A DNA stretch of 64,000 nt. Origin: Chthonomonadales bacterium. Its GTDB lineage: Bacteria > Armatimonadota > Chthonomonadetes > Chthonomonadales > CAJBBX01. Below the pieces are notes generated by a model. The model saw nothing but the letters and a program-made list of their open reading frames with translations. It was not told where the DNA came from and ran no database searches. Every line of letters starts with the position of its first letter. Within the stretch, counting starts at the first letter, position 1. The position numbers and the translations under genes are program-made. The DNA lies in NCBI GenBank assembly GCA_037443035.1, contig JBBIPC010000001.1:1-64000 (forward strand), given 5' to 3'. This document shows, piece after piece, positions 20,466-40,990 of the stretch.

Positions 20466-21485
20466 TTGTGCCCCGAAGATAGCTGCCGAGCTGCCACCGC
20501 CGCTCGAGGAGGATTGCCCTTGCTAGTCAGATTGCGCCCAGCAGCCTTGGTGGTCCTGGCAGTGCTCGCTTGGCCGGTGTCTGTCGTTGGCGCACGAAAC
20601 CGCGATGTCACCGTGGAGCAACTCAAGGCAGCACTCTATCAGATTGACAGCAGGCTGCCTCTGAACGCTAGCGTTCGACCTGCGCCACCGCTCAAGGACG
20701 AGGCGACTCGCCTCAAAGCTCTACGCACGCGGTACCTCGTAACCTTCGACAGTGTCTGTGATCAGCGTGTGCCCGGTATTCTGACGGTTCCACGTGGGCG
20801 ACGGGGACAGATGCCGGCTGTTCTCCTTCTTGCCGGCTCCGGCGGCCACAAGGATACCGACTATGTCCGCCTCACCAGCGACATGTTGAACACCCTCGGC
20901 ATTGTAACCCTCTCCATCGATGCGCAATATCACGGTGATCGCTCACGCAAGAATCGTTCCGGCGACATTCACCTCATCTACGATGTCACGGCTCGGGATG
21001 CGTGGGTGCAGACAGTCCGCGATCTCCGGCGCGCAGTGGACTATCTATGCAGTCGGCATGAAGTAGATCCCCAGCGCATCGGCTTTCTCGGATTCAGTCA
21101 GGGCGCGATGTTGGGTGGCACCTTCCTAGGTGTCGAGCCACGCGTACGGGTAGCGTGCCTTGCCGTTCCAGGGGGCGGTTTCTCGGAATGGGCGCGTCGT
21201 GCGAAGCTAGTGAAGCCACAACAGGAAGCAGTCTTGGATGTGAACGCAGCCCTGACCGATCCCGTCTACTTCGTTGGTCGATTCGCACCTCGGCCGCTCC
21301 TGATCCTGGCAGCCAGGAAGGACGAGATCATCCCCGCGTATGCGACTACCGCCATCGTGGAAGCAGCCGGCACCGGCAAACAGCTCATCTGGTACAACTC
21401 GGGGCATGTGCTACCGCCGAACGCGTTGCTCGTGGATGCGAGACAGTTCTTCCGTCGCCATTTCTTGGGCGCAGGGACTTCCTGA
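20466..21485 (+). CDS. Secreted alpha/beta hydrolase (acetylxylan esterase/dienelactone hydrolase-like)
   Basis: GFSQG nucleophile elbow, KDEII Asp, NSGH His, hydrophobic N-terminal segment. Start uncertain. Confidence 0.85.
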   Translation: MCPEDSCRAATAARGGLPLLVRLRPAALVVLAVLAWPVSVVGARNRDVTVEQLKAALYQIDSRLPLNASVRPAPPLKDEATRLKALRTRYLVTFDSVCDQRVPGILTVPRGRRGQMPAVLLLAGSGGHKDTDYVRLTSDMLNTLGIVTLSIDAQYHGDRSRKNRSGDIHLIYDVTARDAWVQTVRDLRRAVDYLCSRHEVDPQRIGFLGFSQGAMLGGTFLGVEPRVRVACLAVPGGGFSEWARRAKLVKPQQEAVLDVNAALTDPVYFVGRFAPRPLLILAARKDEIIPAYATTAIVEAAGTGKQLIWYNSGHVLPPNALLVDARQFFRRHFLGAGTS

Positions 21486-21771
21486 TGCGCAGGGCGTTGC
21501 GTGCCGATGCCATGACGGCGGCCGCCCTGTTCACGAGATCGGAATGCGGAGCATAGGCCGAGAGGATGGGCTCGAGTGCCATCCAACGTCGCTCGGCAGT
21601 GTGAGCAGCAGCGATGACCTCACGATGCCTACACAGGATTAAGAGATGTTCCGCGCGGAGAACATCATGCTCGATGTACCGCAGCCAGTCTTCGAGAGTT
21701 GGCTCATCGCCAGGGCCGGCGATGGTATGTGCGTTCACGTGTTGCGATTCCTCCAACATTGTACGTTCCAT
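21385..21771 (-). CDS. Hypothetical helical protein, divergent from the sigma cassette
   Basis: ORF fills an otherwise empty ~300-bp gap and has an amphipathic helical pattern (LEDWLRYIEHDVLRAEHLL). It overlaps the hydrolase 3' end by ~100 bp. Confidence 0.4.
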   Translation of the reverse strand: MERTMLEESQHVNAHTIAGPGDEPTLEDWLRYIEHDVLRAEHLLILCRHREVIAAAHTAERRWMALEPILSAYAPHSDLVNRAAAVMASARNALRIRKSLRPRNGDGRTVSHPRATRSAVAHAPSCTR

Positions 21772-21854
21772 TGCACACTGACTCGCATGCGCGACTGGCG
21801 AACCCGAAAGCGATGCAGGTGTAGATGCTAGATGCAATGCATACGACACGTGTA

Positions 21855-21897
21855 CGCGCGAATCGCGCGATTCGCGCGATTCGCATGAATCGCGTGA
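21855..21897. repeat. 24-bp perfect palindrome within 9-bp tandem repeats (CGCGA[A/T]TCG)
   Basis: CGCGCGAATCGC|GCGATTCGCGCG at 21855-21878, plus an overlapping inverted repeat CGCGATTC-gcat-GAATCGCG at 21875-21894. Confidence 0.85.
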
Positions 21898-21940
21898 TAG
21901 GAAGCTTGCCGACTATGTGGACGGATGGGCGAGTAACCTT

Positions 21941-22645
21941 ATGAATGGGCTTCATGATGAGCCGCTCTTCAATGCAGATGACCGCAGTCTCGAGCTGACG
22001 CCGATCAGGCATCACCGCCGCGAAGCCCATGTCGTAGAAGAGCTGAAGCGGCTGGCGAGTGCACCGGCGCGCTCAGTCTCACGGGTTGCGCGTGACTGTG
22101 CGCCGGAGACGCTGGTAATGGCGTTGCGGGCTGCGTTCAGGCGCGGTTTGGAAGATGTGGCGTGCGACATAGCCGAGGTCCTCTCGATGAGAATTGCGCG
22201 GCATGTACGCCGGAAGACGTCGGCTCTACCGTGGCGTGACTCAGAAGAGCGAGACGACGTCGAGGATGAGCTGGCAGTGATCTTATGGCAGTGCTGGACC
22301 AGTCTCGATGAATCCGATGAGTTCTGGGAAATACGGTTCTGGAACTGTCTCGACAGACGCCTGTACGATGTCCTGCGGCGCAACCGAGGTCGTAAGAGGG
22401 ATATCGAAGTTCCTGTGCATGGCGATCTTGGCGGAGAGCACGGTCTGTCAACGGATGACTGGGTCCACGTCGCCATGGATGCGCTGCCAAGAGAACAGAG
22501 ACTAGCGATCATCATGAAGTTCTTTGAAGGCTGGACCGAGCAAGAGATAGCGGCGAAACTACGTGTATCCGAGCGGACTGTTCGGAATTACATCCATCGG
22601 GGTCTCGAACGTCTCAGAGCCATAGGCATGGAGGCGGAGCCATGA
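21941..22645 (+). CDS. ECF-like sigma-70 family sigma factor
   Basis: Sigma4 HTH (MDALPREQRLAIIMKFFEGWTEQEIAAKLRVSERTVRNYIHRGLERLR) and a sigma2-like region (DDVEDE...W...RFWNCLDRRLYDVLRR). Confidence 0.85.
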   Translation: MNGLHDEPLFNADDRSLELTPIRHHRREAHVVEELKRLASAPARSVSRVARDCAPETLVMALRAAFRRGLEDVACDIAEVLSMRIARHVRRKTSALPWRDSEERDDVEDELAVILWQCWTSLDESDEFWEIRFWNCLDRRLYDVLRRNRGRKRDIEVPVHGDLGGEHGLSTDDWVHVAMDALPREQRLAIIMKFFEGWTEQEIAAKLRVSERTVRNYIHRGLERLRAIGMEAEP

Positions 22646-23367
22646 ACAGACTGCCCGACGAAATGGCCGCAGAGTTCCTGGCGGAGTTCGAGCGGAACCC
22701 ACAGGCCCTGCGCTTGTACCTGCAGCGATACCCTACCTTTCGTAGTGACCTCATCGGTATGGCGGTGTACTCGTCCGTCACCGGAGGCGTTACTAGCAAA
22801 GCCGGGGAGTTGGCTGATGAGGAACTGCCCGAGCCCCATTCAGATGAGTACCAACTCGCCAAGAGGATGGCCGATCGCATGCGCAGACTGGCCACCAGCG
22901 GAGCAAGTTCGGCCCAACTCGAGGGGAGTAGCATTCTGGGGGTGGCTCGAGCGCTCGGTCTCCCATCGCGGAAACTCGCTCAACATCTGCGGATAGGGCT
23001 CACGGTCCTCACAAAGCTGGATCGCAGACTGCTGGATCCGACGACAATTCCCGATCGCCTGGTCACGCAGCTCGCTGATGCCCTACGCGTCTCCGTGGAA
23101 GCCGTGCGCACGTATCTCAACTTGGAGCCCACGCTGTCGCCACGTGCAGCCTATCGCGCAGCACGTGCGCCGTCGCTGGAATCGGCGATGGAGCGGGCAG
23201 CGCTCATGCCGAGCATTTCCGAGCCAGATCTCAGCTACGCATCCGAAGTACGTGAAGAAGCGAAACCCTATACTATGGCGCAACAGACCTTCTCAGAAGC
23301 ACTCTCGTCAGCACCAGATATGACGGATGAGGACAAGGCTGTGTGGCTTGCAGAGGGAAACGCGTGA
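22642..23367 (+). CDS. Xre/Cro-like HTH protein; candidate anti-sigma/repressor and protease substrate
   Basis: ARALGLPSRKLAQHLRIGLTVLTKLDR...LVTQLADALRVSVEAV HTH pattern; ATGA overlap with the sigma gene. Confidence 0.7.
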   Translation: MNRLPDEMAAEFLAEFERNPQALRLYLQRYPTFRSDLIGMAVYSSVTGGVTSKAGELADEELPEPHSDEYQLAKRMADRMRRLATSGASSAQLEGSSILGVARALGLPSRKLAQHLRIGLTVLTKLDRRLLDPTTIPDRLVTQLADALRVSVEAVRTYLNLEPTLSPRAAYRAARAPSLESAMERAALMPSISEPDLSYASEVREEAKPYTMAQQTFSEALSSAPDMTDEDKAVWLAEGNA

Positions 23368-23382
23368 CGTAGGGAAGGACTT

Positions 23383-26300
23383 GTGATTTCGCATGCTTCC
23401 CGCAGGGGCAGGGCCGATGCCCTTGCGATGCTGGAGAGTCTGGGGCTCGCGGATGGACGCATTCGGCCAGCGGCAGAAGTCGTGGCGAATGCGTTGGACT
23501 ACGCAGGCGTCGAAGCAACCGAACTGCCGGCTTCCGATCCGCTGCTCGCTGGTGCCGTCGGCGTGCTGGATCGTGACGTCCCTGCGGTCTGGTACCGCGC
23601 TGGCCTGAGACCGGAGACACGCACTGTCCTCCTAGCGCACGAACTCGGCCACTGGTGGATGCATGGCGACGCCAACGTCTTTCTGGAGCAGAGTGCCGAC
23701 GACCCGGACCACTACCACCGTGCTCCGGCAGTGTTGGAGCTCGAAGGCTACAGCCCTGTCCAGCGCACGGAGATCGAGGCTACGAGCTTCGCCTCGGAAC
23801 TGCTGGCTCCCGGACCAGGACTCGTAGAGGCGTTCCGCAAGGGCTGGAGCGCACGCGAACTTGCCAATGCCATCGGTGTCCGAGAAGATCTCGTCGTGCG
23901 TCAACTCGTCATGCACGTCCTGGACGCGCTCGAAGAGGCCAGTCCGAAGCTGCGCGAAGCGGAGATGTGCCCGGAACCCGAGCAGCGAGCCGCAGCAGAA
24001 GCTACCGATGACGTGACGATCGTAGTTGCGGGTCCGGGTACAGGAAAGACTGCGACTCTTGCATGGCGGGTGCACTACCTCCTCGGACAAGGCGTCCGGC
24101 CGGAGGCAATCCTGGCGCTGACATTCTCTCGGAACGCCGCAGAGGAAATGCGATCACGGGTGGCCGCGTTAGACCCCGTCCAGGGACACCGCGTGCAAGT
24201 CTACACGACACACGCATGCGGTCTCGAGCTGCTCCGTGTCTACGGCCGAAGGCTGGGGATCCCACCCGTGCCCACGATTGTGACACCGGTGCGCAGTCTC
24301 GCGATGTTGGAGGAGCATCTGAGAGAAGCCGAGTTGCGCGAACTCCTCTGCGTCGAGAACCCAGCATATCCGCTGGCGGAGGTTGTTCACGCGATCGCGA
24401 GGTGGAAGGGAACGGGGCGTTCGCCTGACGCGCTCGACAGCGTTCCCGATGCTCCTGCGTCGTTTCGCGAGGCCGTAGCCTTGTACCGATCGTACGAGGA
24501 TCTGCTTCGTAAGGCAGGTGCTCTCGACTATGCCGACCTCATTGGTCGCGCTGTGGAGCTTCTCAGGACCTGCCCTGATGTACTGCGCGGCGTGTGCTCG
24601 CGTTTGGAGCATATTCTGGTGGACGAGGTGCAGGATCTGGATGATCTATCGTTGGAACTGCTTCACCTCCTGCACCGCACGGGGATTCAGCTGTGGCTGG
24701 TCGGAGATCCGGCTCAGGCAATCTACGGTTTCCGCGGCGCTGGTCAGCGAGGATGCGCCCAGGAGGCGTTGTCCATGCCACATCGGCGGGTCGAGCTTCG
24801 TGCTGGACACCGCTGCAACGACCGGATCGCTCGTGTTCTGAACGAGTTTGCCAGGCAGACTCGCCTTGAGACGGTATCCTCGCTCGAAGGAGCACCGATG
24901 ACACCCGACGGCTGCGTCGAGTTCGTCGTTGCCCACGACGAGGCCGCTCAGTTGCAGGTCATCTACGAGGGTGTACAGCGGAATCTCCGCATGGGTATCG
25001 GCCTGGGGGCACAGGCAGTACTTTGTCGAACGAACGGGCAAGCACAAGGGATAGCGCGCGGTCTGAAGCGGATGGGTATTGGGGTCCGGGCTGCCGAGAC
25101 GCTCCTCTCGCACTGGGCCGTACGAGAGGCCCTGGCTGCCATGCGTAGCAGTGCGGAAGCGGGCCGTGCCTCGGCGCCCAGAGCCGTTTCCATCTCAACT
25201 GGATCAACCGTAGAAGAGCCAAGTAGCTTAGGTCGAGTACTGAGCGACTGCTATTTTGGAGAAGCCGGCTTGGCCCGTCGCGTAGCGGAGGACTCCATCG
25301 GCAGGCGCGCTCTCGCGTGGTTCTATTGGTTCGTCGCGGAACGGGAGTATGAACTGCAGGCTGCGGGTCTCGGCAACCTCTACGATAGGTTCGAACACAT
25401 ACTCGCAGATCTGCGCCGAGCAGTAGCGCTGCGCGAGGACCGGGAGGTGGTCCTGTCGAGTGAGTGTGATACCGAAGCAGTCTCCGTGATCACGATCCAC
25501 GCGGCGAAGGGGCTGGAATTCGACGCAGTATTCGTGCCAAGTGTGAACGTAGGGCACTATCCCCCGAAGACTCCTCCGCAACAGATCGAGCAACCCGAAG
25601 GCGAGGCTGAAGACACTGTAGAGCGGATTCGGGAAGCGGAGGCCAGATTGCTCTACGTCGCCATGTCTCGCGCACGGCGTTGCCTGACGGTATCGGTATG
25701 CAATAAACTCCATGGTCGTGAGGCGAGGCCGTCGGAGCTCGCTGAACCACTGAGGACTGCCATCGAGATCGCAGGCGGCAAGGTACGGACTTACGAAGCT
25801 GACGCTGCTCCAGTGCCCAACGCTGCTCGGACCTCCTACAGCTGCTCCCAAGAAGTGTTGGCCCTAGAGGCTCTCGACTCTTACGAAGATTGCCCAAGAC
25901 GCTTCCTGTTCGCACGCGAGACACCAACGCCAAGTCGCAGGCGTGAGTATAACGCCTACTCGAGAGGGCTGCACGAGGCGGTGCGGGCGGCACGAGAAGC
26001 AGTGGCGAGAGGAGACTCCGTTCGCGAGGCAGCCATAGCCGCGTGGCAGGATGCATGGCTGCAGTACGAGGTCGCAGGCAACCTGGCTGAGTTCTACGAG
26101 CAGCTGGCGGCAGTGGCCATCGAGAGAGTAGCATCCTCTACCGAGGTGCTGACAGCGGCCGAGAAGACGTTCGAGTTGGAGTTAGAGCACGGATGCATTC
26201 GTGCTCGGGCTGACGGCGTCCGCGTGACCGAGGATGGTTCGATCGCTGTGGAAGTCTATCGTTACCGCTACCGACCCGCCACAGCGCGTTCGTGGTCAGG

Positions 26301-26553
26301 TTCCGTCATACTGCGAAAAGGAGCAGAAGCAATGTGGCCGGGCCGCGAGGTCAAGGTGGGCACGCGATACCTTCTGTCCGATGACGTCGTGTGGTATTCG
26401 GCGAACAAGCGCACGGATAGCAGCGCGCTTGCCAAGTACGATCGGTTCCTTCTCCGGATAGCGCAGCAGCAATTCCCCACGCGTGTAAGCGACCGATGCG
26501 CGTACTGCGAGTTTCTGTTCCAGTGCACGCGATCCCCGGACGGCGATGAATAA
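23383..26553 (+). CDS. ImmA/IrrE metallopeptidase - UvrD-like SF1 helicase - PD-(D/E)XK-like domain fusion
   Basis: LAHELGH plus EATSFASELLAP; AGPGTGKT, LTFSRNAAEEM, LVDEVQD, VGDPAQAIYGFRGA, TIHAAKGLEF, EARLLYVAMSRAR; C-terminal CPRR ... CAYCEFLFQC. Confidence 0.9.
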   Translation: MISHASRRGRADALAMLESLGLADGRIRPAAEVVANALDYAGVEATELPASDPLLAGAVGVLDRDVPAVWYRAGLRPETRTVLLAHELGHWWMHGDANVFLEQSADDPDHYHRAPAVLELEGYSPVQRTEIEATSFASELLAPGPGLVEAFRKGWSARELANAIGVREDLVVRQLVMHVLDALEEASPKLREAEMCPEPEQRAAAEATDDVTIVVAGPGTGKTATLAWRVHYLLGQGVRPEAILALTFSRNAAEEMRSRVAALDPVQGHRVQVYTTHACGLELLRVYGRRLGIPPVPTIVTPVRSLAMLEEHLREAELRELLCVENPAYPLAEVVHAIARWKGTGRSPDALDSVPDAPASFREAVALYRSYEDLLRKAGALDYADLIGRAVELLRTCPDVLRGVCSRLEHILVDEVQDLDDLSLELLHLLHRTGIQLWLVGDPAQAIYGFRGAGQRGCAQEALSMPHRRVELRAGHRCNDRIARVLNEFARQTRLETVSSLEGAPMTPDGCVEFVVAHDEAAQLQVIYEGVQRNLRMGIGLGAQAVLCRTNGQAQGIARGLKRMGIGVRAAETLLSHWAVREALAAMRSSAEAGRASAPRAVSISTGSTVEEPSSLGRVLSDCYFGEAGLARRVAEDSIGRRALAWFYWFVAEREYELQAAGLGNLYDRFEHILADLRRAVALREDREVVLSSECDTEAVSVITIHAAKGLEFDAVFVPSVNVGHYPPKTPPQQIEQPEGEAEDTVERIREAEARLLYVAMSRARRCLTVSVCNKLHGREARPSELAEPLRTAIEIAGGKVRTYEADAAPVPNAARTSYSCSQEVLALEALDSYEDCPRRFLFARETPTPSRRREYNAYSRGLHEAVRAAREAVARGDSVREAAIAAWQDAWLQYEVAGNLAEFYEQLAAVAIERVASSTEVLTAAEKTFELELEHGCIRARADGVRVTEDGSIAVEVYRYRYRPATARSWSGSVILRKGAEAMWPGREVKVGTRYLLSDDVVWYSANKRTDSSALAKYDRFLLRIAQQQFPTRVSDRCAYCEFLFQCTRSPDGDE

Positions 26554-27208
26554 CGAAGAGCGCGACAAGCCCACGGCAGTAGGACAGGAGCACGGAGGCG
26601 CGCGCCCGACATCGTCCGCTGCCGCGAACCACGGGTACCACGACAACAGCGAGTCGCTGACGATAGAGATCGGCCCGATGACTGTATACGATGTGCCTGG
26701 GGTCGCTGCAGTTGACATCGCGTGCTTCCCGACACACTGGAGTGTGCAGTCGTACCGTAACGAGCTGCAGAACCTCCATGCTGCCTACTTCGTAGCACGG
26801 GACAAGGGACAGGTGATCGGCTTTGCAGGCATGTGGATCGCCCTAGATGAAGCACATATCACCATGCTAGCTGTAGTCGGTGAGTACCGGCGTCGGGGCA
26901 TAGCCAAGGCTCTCTTGGTGAGATTGCTTCGGGAAGCGCGCCGGAGGGGCTGTACCGCAGCGACCTTGGAAGTACGCTCGCGGAATACAGCCGCTCAGGC
27001 ACTATACAGGTCCTTTCAGTTCGAGTGGACGGGCCGCAGGGAGGGCTACTACACCGACACCAACGACGATGCTGAGATCTTATGGGTAAGAGGCATTGAC
27101 ACGGAGGCATACGCGAGCACGCTGGAAAGACTAGCCGCTGAGACCCGAGGGGTCGTAATCCGTCATCTAACCGCTGAGGAACGATGTCCTAGCAGGCACG
27201 GCCGATGA
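26546..27208 (+). CDS. rimI: Ribosomal protein S18 alanine N-acetyltransferase
   Basis: EAHITMLAV...YRRRGIA, TLEVRSRNTAAQALY, RREGYYTD...DA; lies upstream of tsaD. Confidence 0.9.
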   Translation: MNNEERDKPTAVGQEHGGARPTSSAAANHGYHDNSESLTIEIGPMTVYDVPGVAAVDIACFPTHWSVQSYRNELQNLHAAYFVARDKGQVIGFAGMWIALDEAHITMLAVVGEYRRRGIAKALLVRLLREARRRGCTAATLEVRSRNTAAQALYRSFQFEWTGRREGYYTDTNDDAEILWVRGIDTEAYASTLERLAAETRGVVIRHLTAEERCPSRHGR

Positions 27209-28230
27209 TCCTCTTGGGTATCGAGACGTCATGCGATGAGACGTCTGCGGCGATCGTGGAAGATGGCACGCGAGTCCTGTCGAGCATCGTGGCCAGCCAG
27301 GCCGACTTGCACGCGAAGTGGGGCGGAGTCGTGCCCGAAGTCGCAAGCCGCCTGCACGTCGAACGCGTGCTACCGGTAATCACCGAGGCGATGGAAGCCG
27401 CGGCCGTAGGGAGTGCGTCGGTTCAAGCCATTGCCGTCACCAATCGACCCGGTCTCATTGGTGCGCTGGTCGTGGGCGTGGCGTGCGCCAAAGCCTTAGC
27501 CTTTGCATGGCGCGTGCCATTGCTGGGTGTCCATCATATCGTAGGTCACCTCTATGCGCCGCTGCTGTCAGAACCGACTTTCGGGTTTCCCTTCCTGTGC
27601 TTGGTGGTCTCGGGTGGTCATACGGAGCTGATCCTAGCCTCGGGCCACGGTTCATTCTGTACACTGGGCCGGACACGTGACGATGCCGCGGGAGAGTGCT
27701 TCGACAAGTGCGCAAGGCTCCTGGGGCTTCCGTATCCAGGCGGACCGGAGATGGAGCGTGTCGCGCGAGATGGCGATCCAGGGGCTGTGGCGTTCCCTCG
27801 TGCGTGGCTTGGCGATAGCTTGGACTTCAGCTTCAGCGGCCTGAAGACAGCAGTGGCGCGATTCATCGAGACAGATGGTGGGAGGACACCAACAGCGGAC
27901 GTAGCGGCGTCGCTCCAGGCCGCGATCGTCGAGGTCCTAGTAAACAAGGCGCTCCTGGCTGCAGAACGGACAGGTGTCTGCCGAGTGGCGCTAGGCGGAG
28001 GCGTGGCTGCGAACAAGACTCTGGCTCGCGAGTTCGCAGATGCGTGCCAGCGGAAAGGACTTCGGTATGTGGTGCCACCAGTGGAGCTCTGTACCGACAA
28101 CGCGGCCATGATCGCTGCGGCTGCACATCACCGTGCAACGGCGGGTGAGGACGATGGTCTTGCCATAGATACGGTAGCGACCGACTACCTCCCCCTGTGC
28201 CCGTCAGTTGCCGCTGGGCGCTCGAAATGA
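27205..28230 (+). CDS. tsaD: tRNA N6-threonylcarbamoyladenosine biosynthesis protein TsaD
   Basis: LGIETSCDETS, GGVVPEVASRLH, VSGGHT, DDAAGECFDK, CTDNAAMIA. Confidence 0.97.
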   Translation: MILLGIETSCDETSAAIVEDGTRVLSSIVASQADLHAKWGGVVPEVASRLHVERVLPVITEAMEAAAVGSASVQAIAVTNRPGLIGALVVGVACAKALAFAWRVPLLGVHHIVGHLYAPLLSEPTFGFPFLCLVVSGGHTELILASGHGSFCTLGRTRDDAAGECFDKCARLLGLPYPGGPEMERVARDGDPGAVAFPRAWLGDSLDFSFSGLKTAVARFIETDGGRTPTADVAASLQAAIVEVLVNKALLAAERTGVCRVALGGGVAANKTLAREFADACQRKGLRYVVPPVELCTDNAAMIAAAAHHRATAGEDDGLAIDTVATDYLPLCPSVAAGRSK

Positions 28231-38741: not shown

Positions 38742-40990
38742 GTTCCTGGCTCCCGTCGGCGATGGTCGACGCTCGATGGGCTGGCTCCAGACGTCGCAGG
38801 CTTCAGTTTGGCCAGCGATAGCAGGAGCCGTTTGACGCCGTTAGCTGGAAACGCGACCGCCACCTCCCAGTCGTTTCCGGAGGGTTTCATGCTTACAACG
38901 ACACCCTGGCCAAATGAATCGTGCCGGACTCTGTCCCCAGGCTTGAACGGTGCGCCGGCAGAAATCGTCGGCAGCCCCACGGGTGATTGCGTCTGCCATG
39001 CGGTCTGCGGCTCGAGGCGGGGTGCCGACGCACGGGAGCCGGTAGAGGCGCGGGGACTCGGAAGCAGACCCATCTCGGAGATGAACCGTGAAGGCTTGTT
39101 GTTCGTCGCCACACCAAACAGGCTACGCCTATAGACATGCGTCACGATGAGCTCTTGTCTGGCACGCGTGATGCCGACATAGCAGAGACGCCGCTCCTCT
39201 TCTGTATCGCGCTCATTCTCCAGCGCTCGGACGTGCGGGAAGAGGCCCTCTTCCATGCCTACCAGGAAGACGATGCCGAACTCCAGGCCCTTGCTGGCGT
39301 GGAGAGTCATGAGCGTCACGGCGTTCTGGCTGAGATCTTGATCGTCCAGATCCGAGACGAGTGCGACTTGCTCGAGAAACCGGGCGAGCGAGCGGTCGTC
39401 TTCCTCACTTTCGTCGAATCGCTGGACGACCGTGAGCAACTCCTGTACATTCTCGATGCGATCCCGGTCCTCGAGAGTACTCCGTGCAGCCAGGTCCGCA
39501 ATGTAGCCGGTGCGTTCTATAACCTCCCGCGTAAGATCCGAGACGCTGAGTCGAGCCGCGAGACCGTGGAGATCCCGGATCAGCTCCGCAAACTCGGCCA
39601 GCGCCTTGCGCGCACGTGCGGTGAGGGCATTCACGTTGGGCGGCGCAGCGACGACATCCCAGAGGGTGGCTCCAGCCTCGTCCGCCTGACGTTCCAAGTG
39701 CGCCAGCGACGTAGCGCCGATCCCGCGTGCTGGCACGTTGATGATTCGCTTGAGGCTTACGGTGTCCTGAGGATTGCGTGCCACACGGAGGTAGGCGAGG
39801 ATGTCTTTGACCTCTTTGCGCTGGTAGAACGGGCGAGCGCCTACGAGGCGGTGCGGCACGCGGAAGTTCGTGAAGACCTCTTCGAATGCTCGCGACTGTG
39901 CGTTGGTGCGATAGAGGACAGCGAAGTCGCCATAGCGCCGGTCGCCACGCAGGACCTCGTGCTGTATGCGCTGCGTAACGAAGATGGCTTCTTCCTGTTC
40001 GTTGGGAAGTTCGTACAGCTCGATAGGACGACCCGGATCGTTGTCTGTCCAGAGACGCTTGCTCTTGCGCGTGCGGTTATTGGAGACGACGTTATGTGCT
40101 GCCTGCAGGATGGCGCGAGTCGAACGGTAGTTCTGCTCGAGTTTGATCACATGCGCGTCCGGGTAGTCGTGTTCGAAGCGGAGCATCAGGTCCACGTCGG
40201 CGCCTCGGAACGCGTAGATGGACTGGTCATCGTCACCGACGACGCACACGTTGCGATGCTTGCCTCCGAGCAAGTTGACGAGGACATACTGGGCGTAATT
40301 GATATCCTGGTACTCGTCCACGAGGATGTGTTGGAAGCGGTTCTGGTACCGCTGAAGTACTGTCTCGTGCTGCCTGAGCATCGTCACCGCGTGCATGAGC
40401 AGGTCATCGAAGTCCAGAGCATTGTTCAGGCGCAAGTGTTCCTCATACTTCTCGTACACCCGCGCACACAGCCGCTCGTAGTACGCCTGTGCGGTGCGGG
40501 CGTACTCCGCGGCGTCAATCAGCCGCTCCTTGGCCTTGCTGATCTGCGTGAGGATGCCGCGTGGTTGGTACCGCTCGGCATCGATATTGAGCGCCCGCAT
40601 CGTGTCCCGTACTACGGTGATCTGATCGGCATCGTCGTAGATCAAGAAGTCACCGGGTATCCCGATTTCAGGCCCAGATTCGCGCAGCATGCGGGCGCAG
40701 CAAGCATGGAACGTGCCTATCCATAGTCCTCGACAGGAGCGGTGGATCAGTCGCTCCGTTCGCTCCCGCATCTCATTGGCGGCCTTGTTCGTGAAAGTCA
40801 CGGCGAGGATGTGGTGCGGAGAGACACCGCGTTCCGCGATGAGGTAGGCAATGCGATGCGTTAGGACCCGCGTCTTACCGGAACCTGCACCGGCGAAGAC
40901 GAGGAGGGGGCCTCCGGGATGGGTCACAGCCTCGCGCTGAGCTGGATTCAGGCCGTCGAGCAGGGCTTGTGCGTCTGGGGAACTATGCAT
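38738..40990 (-). CDS. pcrA: ATP-dependent DNA helicase PcrA/UvrD
   Basis: LNPAQ, AGAGSGKT, VDEYQD, GDDDQSIY, LEQNYRS, KGLEF, EEERRLCYVGITRA, C-terminal Tudor-like GDRVRH. Confidence 0.96.
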   Translation of the reverse strand: MHSSPDAQALLDGLNPAQREAVTHPGGPLLVFAGAGSGKTRVLTHRIAYLIAERGVSPHHILAVTFTNKAANEMRERTERLIHRSCRGLWIGTFHACCARMLRESGPEIGIPGDFLIYDDADQITVVRDTMRALNIDAERYQPRGILTQISKAKERLIDAAEYARTAQAYYERLCARVYEKYEEHLRLNNALDFDDLLMHAVTMLRQHETVLQRYQNRFQHILVDEYQDINYAQYVLVNLLGGKHRNVCVVGDDDQSIYAFRGADVDLMLRFEHDYPDAHVIKLEQNYRSTRAILQAAHNVVSNNRTRKSKRLWTDNDPGRPIELYELPNEQEEAIFVTQRIQHEVLRGDRRYGDFAVLYRTNAQSRAFEEVFTNFRVPHRLVGARPFYQRKEVKDILAYLRVARNPQDTVSLKRIINVPARGIGATSLAHLERQADEAGATLWDVVAAPPNVNALTARARKALAEFAELIRDLHGLAARLSVSDLTREVIERTGYIADLAARSTLEDRDRIENVQELLTVVQRFDESEEDDRSLARFLEQVALVSDLDDQDLSQNAVTLMTLHASKGLEFGIVFLVGMEEGLFPHVRALENERDTEEERRLCYVGITRARQELIVTHVYRRSLFGVATNNKPSRFISEMGLLPSPRASTGSRASAPRLEPQTAWQTQSPVGLPTISAGAPFKPGDRVRHDSFGQGVVVSMKPSGNDWEVAVAFPANGVKRLLLSLAKLKPATSGASPSSVDHRRREPGT

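Follow-up and report, generated by a model that had tools for sequence, protein, structure and literature searches.

A three-domain fusion gene

The window analysed here is a stretch of 64,000 nucleotides (nt) from a Chthonomonadales bacterium of the phylum Armatimonadota (assembly GCA_037443035.1, contig JBBIPC010000001.1, positions 1 to 64,000), and the gene under study occupies positions 23383-26553 of its plus strand. The gene encodes a fusion protein of 1056 amino acids (aa), in which an M78 peptidase with a helix-turn-helix (HTH) is followed by a UvrD-type superfamily 1 (SF1) motor and a four-cysteine nuclease-like domain. The reading frame is uninterrupted, starts with GTG and has the ribosome site GGAAGG ahead of it. 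In an original prediction made from the letters alone, a three-domain fusion with intact protease and ATPase motifs and an apparently degenerate nuclease had been described, and every motif quoted there was found in this frame at its position. Moreover, the fusion is the third member of a sigma/anti-sigma-like/protease cassette with its own promoter-like motif, a point that was not part of that prediction. The features of the fusion are as follows.

23383..26553, plus strand: fusion gene, 1056 aa (M78 peptidase with HTH, UvrD-type SF1 motor, four-cysteine nuclease-like domain)
23383..23937, plus strand: IrrE/CapP-type peptidase with HTH, aa 1-185 (Pfam, profile matches)
23971..25704, plus strand: UvrD/PcrA-type helicase, aa 197-774 (Pfam, conservation, Foldseek)
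24031-24051, plus strand: Walker A, GPGTGKT, aa 217-223
within 24616-24636, plus strand: Walker B, DE at aa 414-415
24703-24738, plus strand: helicase motif III, aa 441-452
24796-24816, plus strand: deviant helicase motif IV, LRAGHRC, aa 472-478
25492-25524, plus strand: helicase motif V, aa 704-714
25639-25674, plus strand: helicase motif VI, aa 753-764
25849..26532, plus strand: iron-staple-type nuclease-like domain, aa 823-1050 (alignment, hhalign)

The three-domain architecture was borne out by the Pfam domains found above their cut-offs, namely, Peptidase_M78 (aa 66-174), UvrD-helicase (199-454), UvrD_C, and PDDEXK_1 (830-1048), and by the family of homologues. An AlphaFold2 model based on 78 aligned sequences reached a mean predicted local distance difference test score (pLDDT) of 89.6 and a predicted template modelling score (pTM) of 0.91, with low confidence only at the loop of residues 100-122 and near residue 600. 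When this model, a check proposed with the original prediction, was searched with Foldseek, PcrA and UvrD were the top matches and AdnA was matched over 984 columns. Homologues of the fusion numbered 1129 among 7994 scored candidates. As HExxH lay ahead of the helicase in 95 of the 120 best of these, the fusion is not a product of chance. For conservation, 97 fused database proteins, 60 genome loci, and the window protein were combined into a set of 158, of which 152 remained after reduction at 90% identity.

In the case of the peptidase, HELGH occupies residues 86-90 (23638-23652; H86, E87, and H90) and EATSFASELL residues 132-141. H86, H90, and the third zinc ligand E130 (23770-23772), which aligns with the ligand of CapP, were present in all 152 relatives and E87 in 150, so that the protease motif, reported as intact, is near-invariant. 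The downstream glutamate had been placed in EATSFASELL; this segment is present, but the ligand is E130 and not E132 of EATSF, which occurs in 111 of the 152. The profile of the peptidase part matched CapP (7t5t, E 1e-6) and IrrE (3dte, E 1e-5). A cysteine switch loop has been described for CapP (excerpts of PMC13228613), and its cysteine was found in 90 of 149 relatives. After the peptidase and HTH comes the helicase from residue 197, and the fusion contains no GAF domain. Two fused proteins, P0052 and P0053, have HALAH instead of HExxH together with changed downstream residues, and are likely peptidase-dead.

The SF1A helicase motifs Q, I, Ia, II, III, IVa, V, and VI were all present in the fusion. 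The GKT of Walker A, D414, Q445, R477, H706, K709, and R763 were found in 152 of 152 sequences and E415 in 151, in agreement with the intact Walker A and B and motifs III, V, and VI first reported. Motif IV does read LRAGHRC instead of LxxNYRS, and this is peculiar to the window copy: L472 and R477 are retained and GH-C replaces NY-S, with G475 occurring in 1, H476 in 2, C478 in 3, and R477 in all of the 152. PADLOC matches of the fusion to GajB covered the helicase part only.

The nuclease-like domain carries C837, C1039, C1042, and C1048, RADG at residues 942-945 and VEVYRYR at 956-962. It was excised by its cysteine pattern from 149 of the 152 fused proteins (one cut at a contig end, one short protein, and one pattern miss were dropped) and compared with 23 unfused helicase-nucleases out of the same homologue search, which served as controls. 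The 1+3 cysteine arrangement seen at the C-terminus was thus present here and in 149 of 152 relatives, with an hhalign probability of 100 to the unfused controls. The same spacing in AddB (C801, C1121, C1124, and C1130) holds a 4Fe-4S cluster that is required for DNA binding (excerpts of PMC3321194), and the cysteine spacing points to an iron-sulphur (Fe-S) cluster in the fusion. D[YFWH]K was found in 1 of 149 fused proteins and Q-x3-Y in none, as opposed to 23 of 23 controls each; the nuclease His (12 of 149), Glu (10 of 149), and motif II Asp (134 of 149) were likewise present in every control. The position of the motif III Asp was taken by Arg or Lys in 110 of 149 fused proteins. MAFFT and hhalign concurred in the register, in which V958 stands for D, Y959 for Y, and R960 for K. 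Hence, the replacement of D/E-x-K by VEVYRYR was confirmed, and the alignment of homologues that had been proposed as a check showed the loss to be family-wide.

The window copy retains H864, E927, and D944, is without the motif III Asp (V958), the Lys (R960), and Q-x3-Y, and is less degenerate than most of the family. Judged by sequence, the fusion would not be an active iron-staple nuclease. The proposal that the fold is kept for binding or sensing instead of cutting is supported by the loss of motifs relative to the controls, although the three control-invariant residues kept in the window copy complicate it. It is very improbable that the domain still cuts DNA by way of a rearranged active site, which would make the protein a defence enzyme that destroys DNA on its own. 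The retained H864, E927, and D944, with E957 beside the lost Asp, would fit such an enzyme, as would the LVDYKT of one relative, L038; however, the His and Glu are rare and Q-x3-Y is absent in the family, no Lys or replacement acidic residue is conserved among the fused domains, and a single-copy gene that is family-wide and has conserved housekeeping neighbours is unlike a defence island. L038 (genome G254) is the sole fusion of 149 with D-Y-K, and it is without the His, the Glu, and Q-x3-Y. A single-sequence search of the domain against the PDB gave no match.

A sigma factor cassette with a promoter-like motif

Upstream of the fusion lie a sigma gene and a middle gene, and the starts and stops of the three genes overlap or nearly adjoin. 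Their features, with those of a gene read divergently from the cassette, are listed below.

21941..22645, plus strand: ECF-like sigma factor with regions 2 and 4 and an N-terminal extension
22642..23367, plus strand: 241-aa middle protein, between the sigma gene and the fusion
21906..21934, plus strand: weak promoter-like site upstream of the sigma gene (score 4.9; 6 nt between the AGT and ATG 21941)
21781..21809, minus strand: promoter-like site upstream of the divergent gene (score 15.1; 9 nt between the AGT and the ATG of that gene)
21385..21771, minus strand: 128-aa divergent gene without a Pfam family, likely target of the sigma factor

The longest reading frame of the sigma gene begins at GTG 21917, with ATG 21941 as the likely start. 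Its product scored 52 bits with TIGR02937 (cut-off 42.9), remained below the cut-offs of all named extracytoplasmic function (ECF) groups, and gave profile matches to AlgU, SigE, and RpoE structures. When the peptidase domain was used as a query, a match, nearly always a single one, was obtained in 96 of 401 genomes of the phylum: in 18 of 20 genomes of the family of the window, in 30 of 32, 18 of 23, and 22 of 29 genomes of three further families, and in 7 genomes elsewhere. From the 95 non-self matching genomes, 60 loci were fetched, picked for strong matches and long frames. Including the window, the middle gene was found in 49 and the sigma gene in 48 of 61 loci, some of the absences being contig ends. 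In 12 of the 61 (e.g., L039, L048, L050, and L079), the fusion was without the sigma and middle genes in the fetched 10 kb; some of these loci are contig ends, and others suggest a split cassette. The best titled relatives among the matches listed (at least 600 pattern matches, of which 80 were kept and 24 of these judged fused) came from Armatimonadota, followed by Chloroflexota, Actinomycetota, and alphaproteobacteria.

The middle protein consists of N-terminal helices (about aa 5-85), a probable XRE-type HTH (about 97-160), a loop with Y171 and R172, and conserved C-terminal helices. The window copy belongs to no Pfam or NCBIfam family, and Pfam HTH_31 was detected in 8 of 44 middle proteins. 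Foldseek searches with its model gave weak, consistent XRE-type matches, including the HTH of DdrO and CapH, with no row at E 0.001, and the Atlas placed the protein near an HTH_31-rich cluster (0.93). A single-sequence homologue search yielded one match only, and a profile search against the PDB gave no convincing match. Within the loop after the HTH, position 171 was Tyr or Phe in 44 of 44 middle proteins and position 172 Arg or Lys in 39 of 44. By analogy, the bond between Y171 and R172 was taken as a candidate cut site.

The model of the sigma-middle complex scored 0.78, and the best of three controls scored 0.00; the mark used was reached by 116 of 157 solved pairs and 2 of 215 mismatched pairs. 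The runs, made with the alignments of the analysis itself, agreed in at least 53% of contacts, with a partner pLDDT of at least 68. In the model, residues 5-85 of the middle protein face region 2 of the sigma factor (aa 74-154), so that the N-terminus of the middle protein is predicted to bind the sigma factor. An interface of sigma region 2 with N-terminal helices of the partner is the usual anti-sigma geometry.

The promoter-like motif TTTCCG(G/C)TT-N14-AGT is a new element found here. Motif discovery in 47 sigma upstream regions (49 minus two duplicates) returned TTTCCG(G/C)TT, 14 bases, and (G)AGT, with a likelihood of 214 as opposed to 66-69 in shuffles at width 20. A pattern search of both strands detected 43 sites in 36 of the 47 regions, and the sites on the reverse strand faced a small divergent gene. 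The motif is non-palindromic, its spacing is fixed, and the start codon follows exactly 9 nt downstream at 10 of 16 sites in genome G175. As it is directional, with fixed spacing and a start codon 9 bases on, the motif is probably a promoter rather than an operator. In the 96 genomes with a peptidase match, the strict pattern occurred at 441 sites and its reversed control at 72; the 441 include training sites, and the genomes are related by descent. In the 305 genomes without a match, the corresponding counts were 119 and 257. Thus, within the phylum, the motif was enriched in cassette-bearing genomes only. Outside the phylum, twin sites preceded the sigma gene and a ubiquitin-like operon in five loci; they share TTCCGG, and their -10 part is lineage-specific (GATT, GACT, and AATT).

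In 14 of 60 loci, a small helical protein homologous to the divergent gene product faces away from the sigma gene (single comparison, E 3e-7; hhalign probability 82). At G087:C5 and G369:C445, lexA adjoins the divergent side of the cassette, with a site scored in G087; from this position, the motif may drive lexA in both genomes.

Proposed DNA-gated switch and the genes behind the motif

Taken together, these features are best read as a switch, to which we assign a probability of about 0.6. The helicase and the predicted Fe-S nuclease-like domain would load onto damaged or foreign DNA without cutting it, and this loading would turn on the zinc peptidase. The peptidase would then cut the middle protein, which is predicted to hold the sigma factor, with Y171 and R172 flanking the candidate bond. 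Since the candidate bond is distant from the helices predicted to bind the sigma factor, a further event, for example, the break-up of an oligomer or degradation, would probably have to follow before the factor is released. The freed sigma factor would transcribe the genes behind the TTTCCG-N-AGT motif, and the output may be a repair and defence regulon alongside LexA. The DNA signal, activation, cut, and release are proposed by analogy with IrrE/DdrO and CapP/CapH.

A different role for the middle protein, namely, acting on DNA, either as a CapH/DdrO-like repressor or as a sigma-docking co-activator, so that cutting would alter promoter occupancy, is unlikely. The protein probably contains an XRE-type HTH, and its candidate cut is located beyond the HTH, like those of CapH and DdrO, and not within the sigma-binding helices. 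Furthermore, a perfect 22-bp palindrome (21856-21877), a possible operator with two partial copies recognised by eye up to about 21895, lies between the two divergent promoter-like sites, and Lau et al. list 24 CapH/CapP systems with a sigma factor alongside, no helicase being mentioned in the passages available. However, the predicted interface places the N-terminal 85 residues on sigma region 2, and the best motif solutions upstream of the 47 sigma genes were bipartite, with no palindrome.

The main task of the fusion might also be that of an effector in repair or defence: an AdnB-like motor with a dead nuclease would unwind DNA ends, the peptidase would be an accessory, and the sigma factor would merely induce the fusion together with other repair genes. 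The complete ATPase motifs and the AdnA-like fold over helicase and nuclease would suit this role; a nuclease-dead AdnAB motor still supports recombination (excerpts of PMC5314763), and the cassette itself lies behind the motif. Yet conservation is as strict in the peptidase as in the ATPase residues, a gene for a probable XRE-type protein is adjacent in most loci, and the genome already has its own PcrA and an AddAB-like pair, which makes such a role improbable.

The genes behind the motif in relatives bear on the output of the proposed switch. In a scan of the order, 60 sites were chosen by eye, and 63 + 27 proteins were scanned for first-gene identity. The first genes included polA (twice), ssb, radA, ligA, recF, WGR-PARP, and thpR (ahead of recA), as well as RhuM (twice), cas6, a methylase, an annealing-protein-like gene (twice), and many unrelated genes. 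For targeted scans of upstream regions, a matrix trained on the sigma upstream regions alone was used with a mark of 15. For recA, the 1.5 kb upstream reached this mark at 12 of 30 loci in the order, against 0 of 30 in each of three controls (downstream, reversed, and opposite-strand); the 30 loci were the best-scoring among 58 genomes, and one had first been met via the motif. In two other cassette families, recA had the motif in 13 of 30 loci (10 of 11 in f14 and 3 of 19 in f29), giving 25 of 60 loci overall, and the motif was found at 0 of 29 recA loci from genomes without a peptidase match. The annealing-like gene had the motif in 12 of 26 upstream regions (two met via the motif) against 0, 2, and 0 in controls, and lexA in 1 of 10.

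Three genomes chosen for many strict sites, G136, G172, and G175, were inspected at all of their sites. The 17 sites of G136 precede gyrB, recD2, recA, ssb, cas3, lon, two Uma2 nucleases, a transposase, the own sigma gene and divergent gene, and six other genes. In G172, 16 sites precede ligA, thpR-recA, an AddB-like nuclease, a cytosine methylase, cas3, a thermonuclease, an ADP-ribosylglycohydrolase, the annealing-like gene, the own sigma gene, and seven others. The 16 sites of G175 precede a RecQ-like helicase (named by eye), dprA, three DUF559 genes, a GIY-YIG gene, two IS200-like genes, and eight others; with the start codon 9 bases behind these sites (L405-L444), small mobile or nuclease genes may also use the promoter.

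Outside the phylum, a ubiquitin-like operon directly followed the fusion in 6 of 11 loci examined and WGR-PARP in one. PADLOC identified BilABCD at L279 and L281 and BilA, B, and D at L321; L274 has multi-ubiquitin/E2 and JAB/E1 genes, and the operons of L280 and L282 were recognised by eye. WGR-PARP genes were seen behind the motif in L144 (G254) and directly after the cassette at L306. The annealing-like gene (G000:C1, about 327300-327900, plus strand; also L127, L159, and L451) was found in 25 of 61 genomes of the order; its product has no Pfam family, and its place in the Atlas near Slr1353_N (0.96) and Sak (0.90) is a lead only.

Known damage switches comprise RecA-LexA, ssDNA-binding IrrE/CapP proteases with a repressor (ssDNA, single-stranded DNA), and WYL activators. 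In IrrE (PprI)/DdrO of Deinococcus, the M78 peptidase is likewise followed by an HTH and the partner is XRE-type, as the middle protein probably is, with DdrO being cut between L106 and R107, a hydrophobic-Arg bond that resembles the candidate here (excerpts of PMC12828697). The output of IrrE/DdrO is a repair regulon that includes recA and is not controlled via LexA (excerpts of PMC10904395 and PMC12828697), and both IrrE/DdrO and CapP/CapH are stimulated by ssDNA (excerpts of PMC10904395, PMC12828697, and PMC13228613). However, IrrE has a GAF domain with an ssDNA groove, where the fusion has a UvrD motor and an iron-staple domain instead; unlike DdrO, the middle protein carries additional helices at its N-terminus, through which it is predicted to bind a dedicated sigma factor; and the target of IrrE/DdrO is an operator, whereas the motif of the cassette is promoter-like and bipartite and LexA is retained here.

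CapP/CapH shares the peptidase family, the switch-loop cysteine of many relatives, a probable XRE partner, and the position before ubiquitin-like operons in other phyla, and the aromatic-Arg cut of CapH between F82 and R83 (excerpts of PMC13228613; Lau et al.) resembles Y171 and R172. In contrast, CapP, at about 290 aa, includes a GAF domain but no helicase, and CapP/CapH is described in the available passages as de-repression only. The fusion cassette belongs to the core of four families, in which it is present in single copy and its regulon is dispersed, and the window copy has no switch cysteine. As in AdnAB/AddAB, an SF1 motor precedes a RecB-type domain whose 1+3 cysteines have the AddB spacing, but the fusion has an N-terminal peptidase and neither D-x-K nor Q-x3-Y, and no second AddAB/AdnAB subunit gene lies beside it, the neighbours being the middle gene and rimI. 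Accordingly, the cassette is proposed to work like IrrE/DdrO and CapP/CapH without their GAF architecture, and not as an AddAB/AdnAB subunit.

ECF sigma/anti-sigma pairs are resembled in that only regions 2 and 4 are present, a predicted binding partner is adjacent, and a bipartite motif precedes the sigma gene itself. Unlike in known ECF proteolysis switches, a soluble protease of the M78 type is joined here to a DNA motor, so that the signal would be DNA. No such sigma group was found in the main text and part of the supplement of the 2021 ECF classification, and no description of the fusion or the cassette was found in the open-licence PMC and bioRxiv literature, the available parts of PMC5512222 and PMC8103513 included.

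A broader proposal, that the cassette is a second, LexA-independent damage response in which a motor-driven protein tracks or grips broken DNA, fires a protease, and frees a sigma factor, serving as a core recA/repair regulator in Armatimonadota and with ubiquitin-like anti-phage operons elsewhere, is tentative, its chances being slightly under even. If it were true, a protease that is controlled by an ATP-driven motor on DNA and acts through a sigma factor would be a further switch design, which could answer a different signal, namely, DNA ends or forks instead of free ssDNA. One switch would tie the control of general repair to that of anti-phage operons, and a first candidate damage regulon would be available for a little-studied phylum. 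Moreover, the motif offers a ready test, in which the genes are small and only three in number, the promoter is defined, and the targets are named.

The cassette in the window's own genome

In the genome of the window, a score of 15 was reached by 0.04% of 2810 predicted genes, and the divergent gene has such a site. The weak site of the sigma gene sits where relatives carry strong sites. Of the 26 regulon queries, 12 had homologues, among which only the annealing-like gene (7.4, top 2.6%) and recF (6.0) scored; no site was found before recA, ssb, ligA, polA, radA, gyrB, lon, dprA, thpR, or the AddB-like gene. The motif was not enriched in this genome (3 sites above 17, compared with 4-6 in shuffles), and the strict pattern gave 0 sites and 1 control. 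The four closest relatives have 0-1 strict sites each, with clear sites at the cassette. A genome-specific relaxed motif gave no signal either, with 43 matches against 35 and 47 for wrong spacers. Given the few and weak sites, the regulon seems to have shrunk, or its specificity to have drifted, in this branch; in the window lineage, all that seems to be left of it is the cassette, the divergent gene, and possibly one annealing-protein-like gene.

This scarcity of sites weighs against the proposed DNA-gated switch, and further points do so as well. The window copy has the deviant motif IV and lacks the switch-loop cysteine, the recA site is rare in family f29, and the motif count in cassette-bearing genomes has the make-up given above. 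The complex score may partly reflect likeness, since solved ECF/anti-sigma structures exist, and the predicted binding would fit inhibition and co-activation alike. In addition, LexA was found in 57 of 61 genomes of the order, so that the cassette is not the sole damage regulator; with the motif at 1 of 10 lexA upstream regions, a replacement of the SOS system was rejected.

Some of these points would also be expected if the cassette were functional in relatives and decaying in the window lineage. To the deviant motif IV, the missing switch cysteine, the weak own promoter, and the near absence of a regulon may be added the length, about 100 aa below the family median of 1152, and the identity of the cassette proteins to close relatives, 30-38% compared with 47-75% for neighbours. 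Nevertheless, decay is distinctly improbable and was rejected as the leading explanation, as all three reading frames are open and all 39 invariant columns of the family are retained in the window fusion. Among 41 substitutions relative to the 96%-identical P0001, none fell on 88 invariant or near-invariant columns, where about 3.4 were expected (hand count). Fast change is family-wide, with a mean column identity of 28%, and the site of the divergent gene is retained.

The window genome has LexA, PcrA, and an AddAB-like pair, the latter on contig C18. The ordinary PcrA (750 aa) is encoded within the window as well, 13 kb past the fusion at about 39100-40950 on the minus strand. A defence island was rejected as a description of the locus on the basis of its flat composition, single copy, and housekeeping neighbours common to 8-9 relatives. 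No Bil or ubiquitin-like genes were found beside the window fusion or among the recurring neighbours of the 60 loci; in the window genome, the Prok-E2_B profile was silent, as was its control, and one JAB domain was above its cut-off. A metagenome scan for close strains returned ordinary helicases only. Downstream (26546-28230), rimI overlaps the stop of the fusion and is followed by tsaD, an order that recurs in several relatives of the family; with this overlap, rimI and tsaD may be read through from the cassette.

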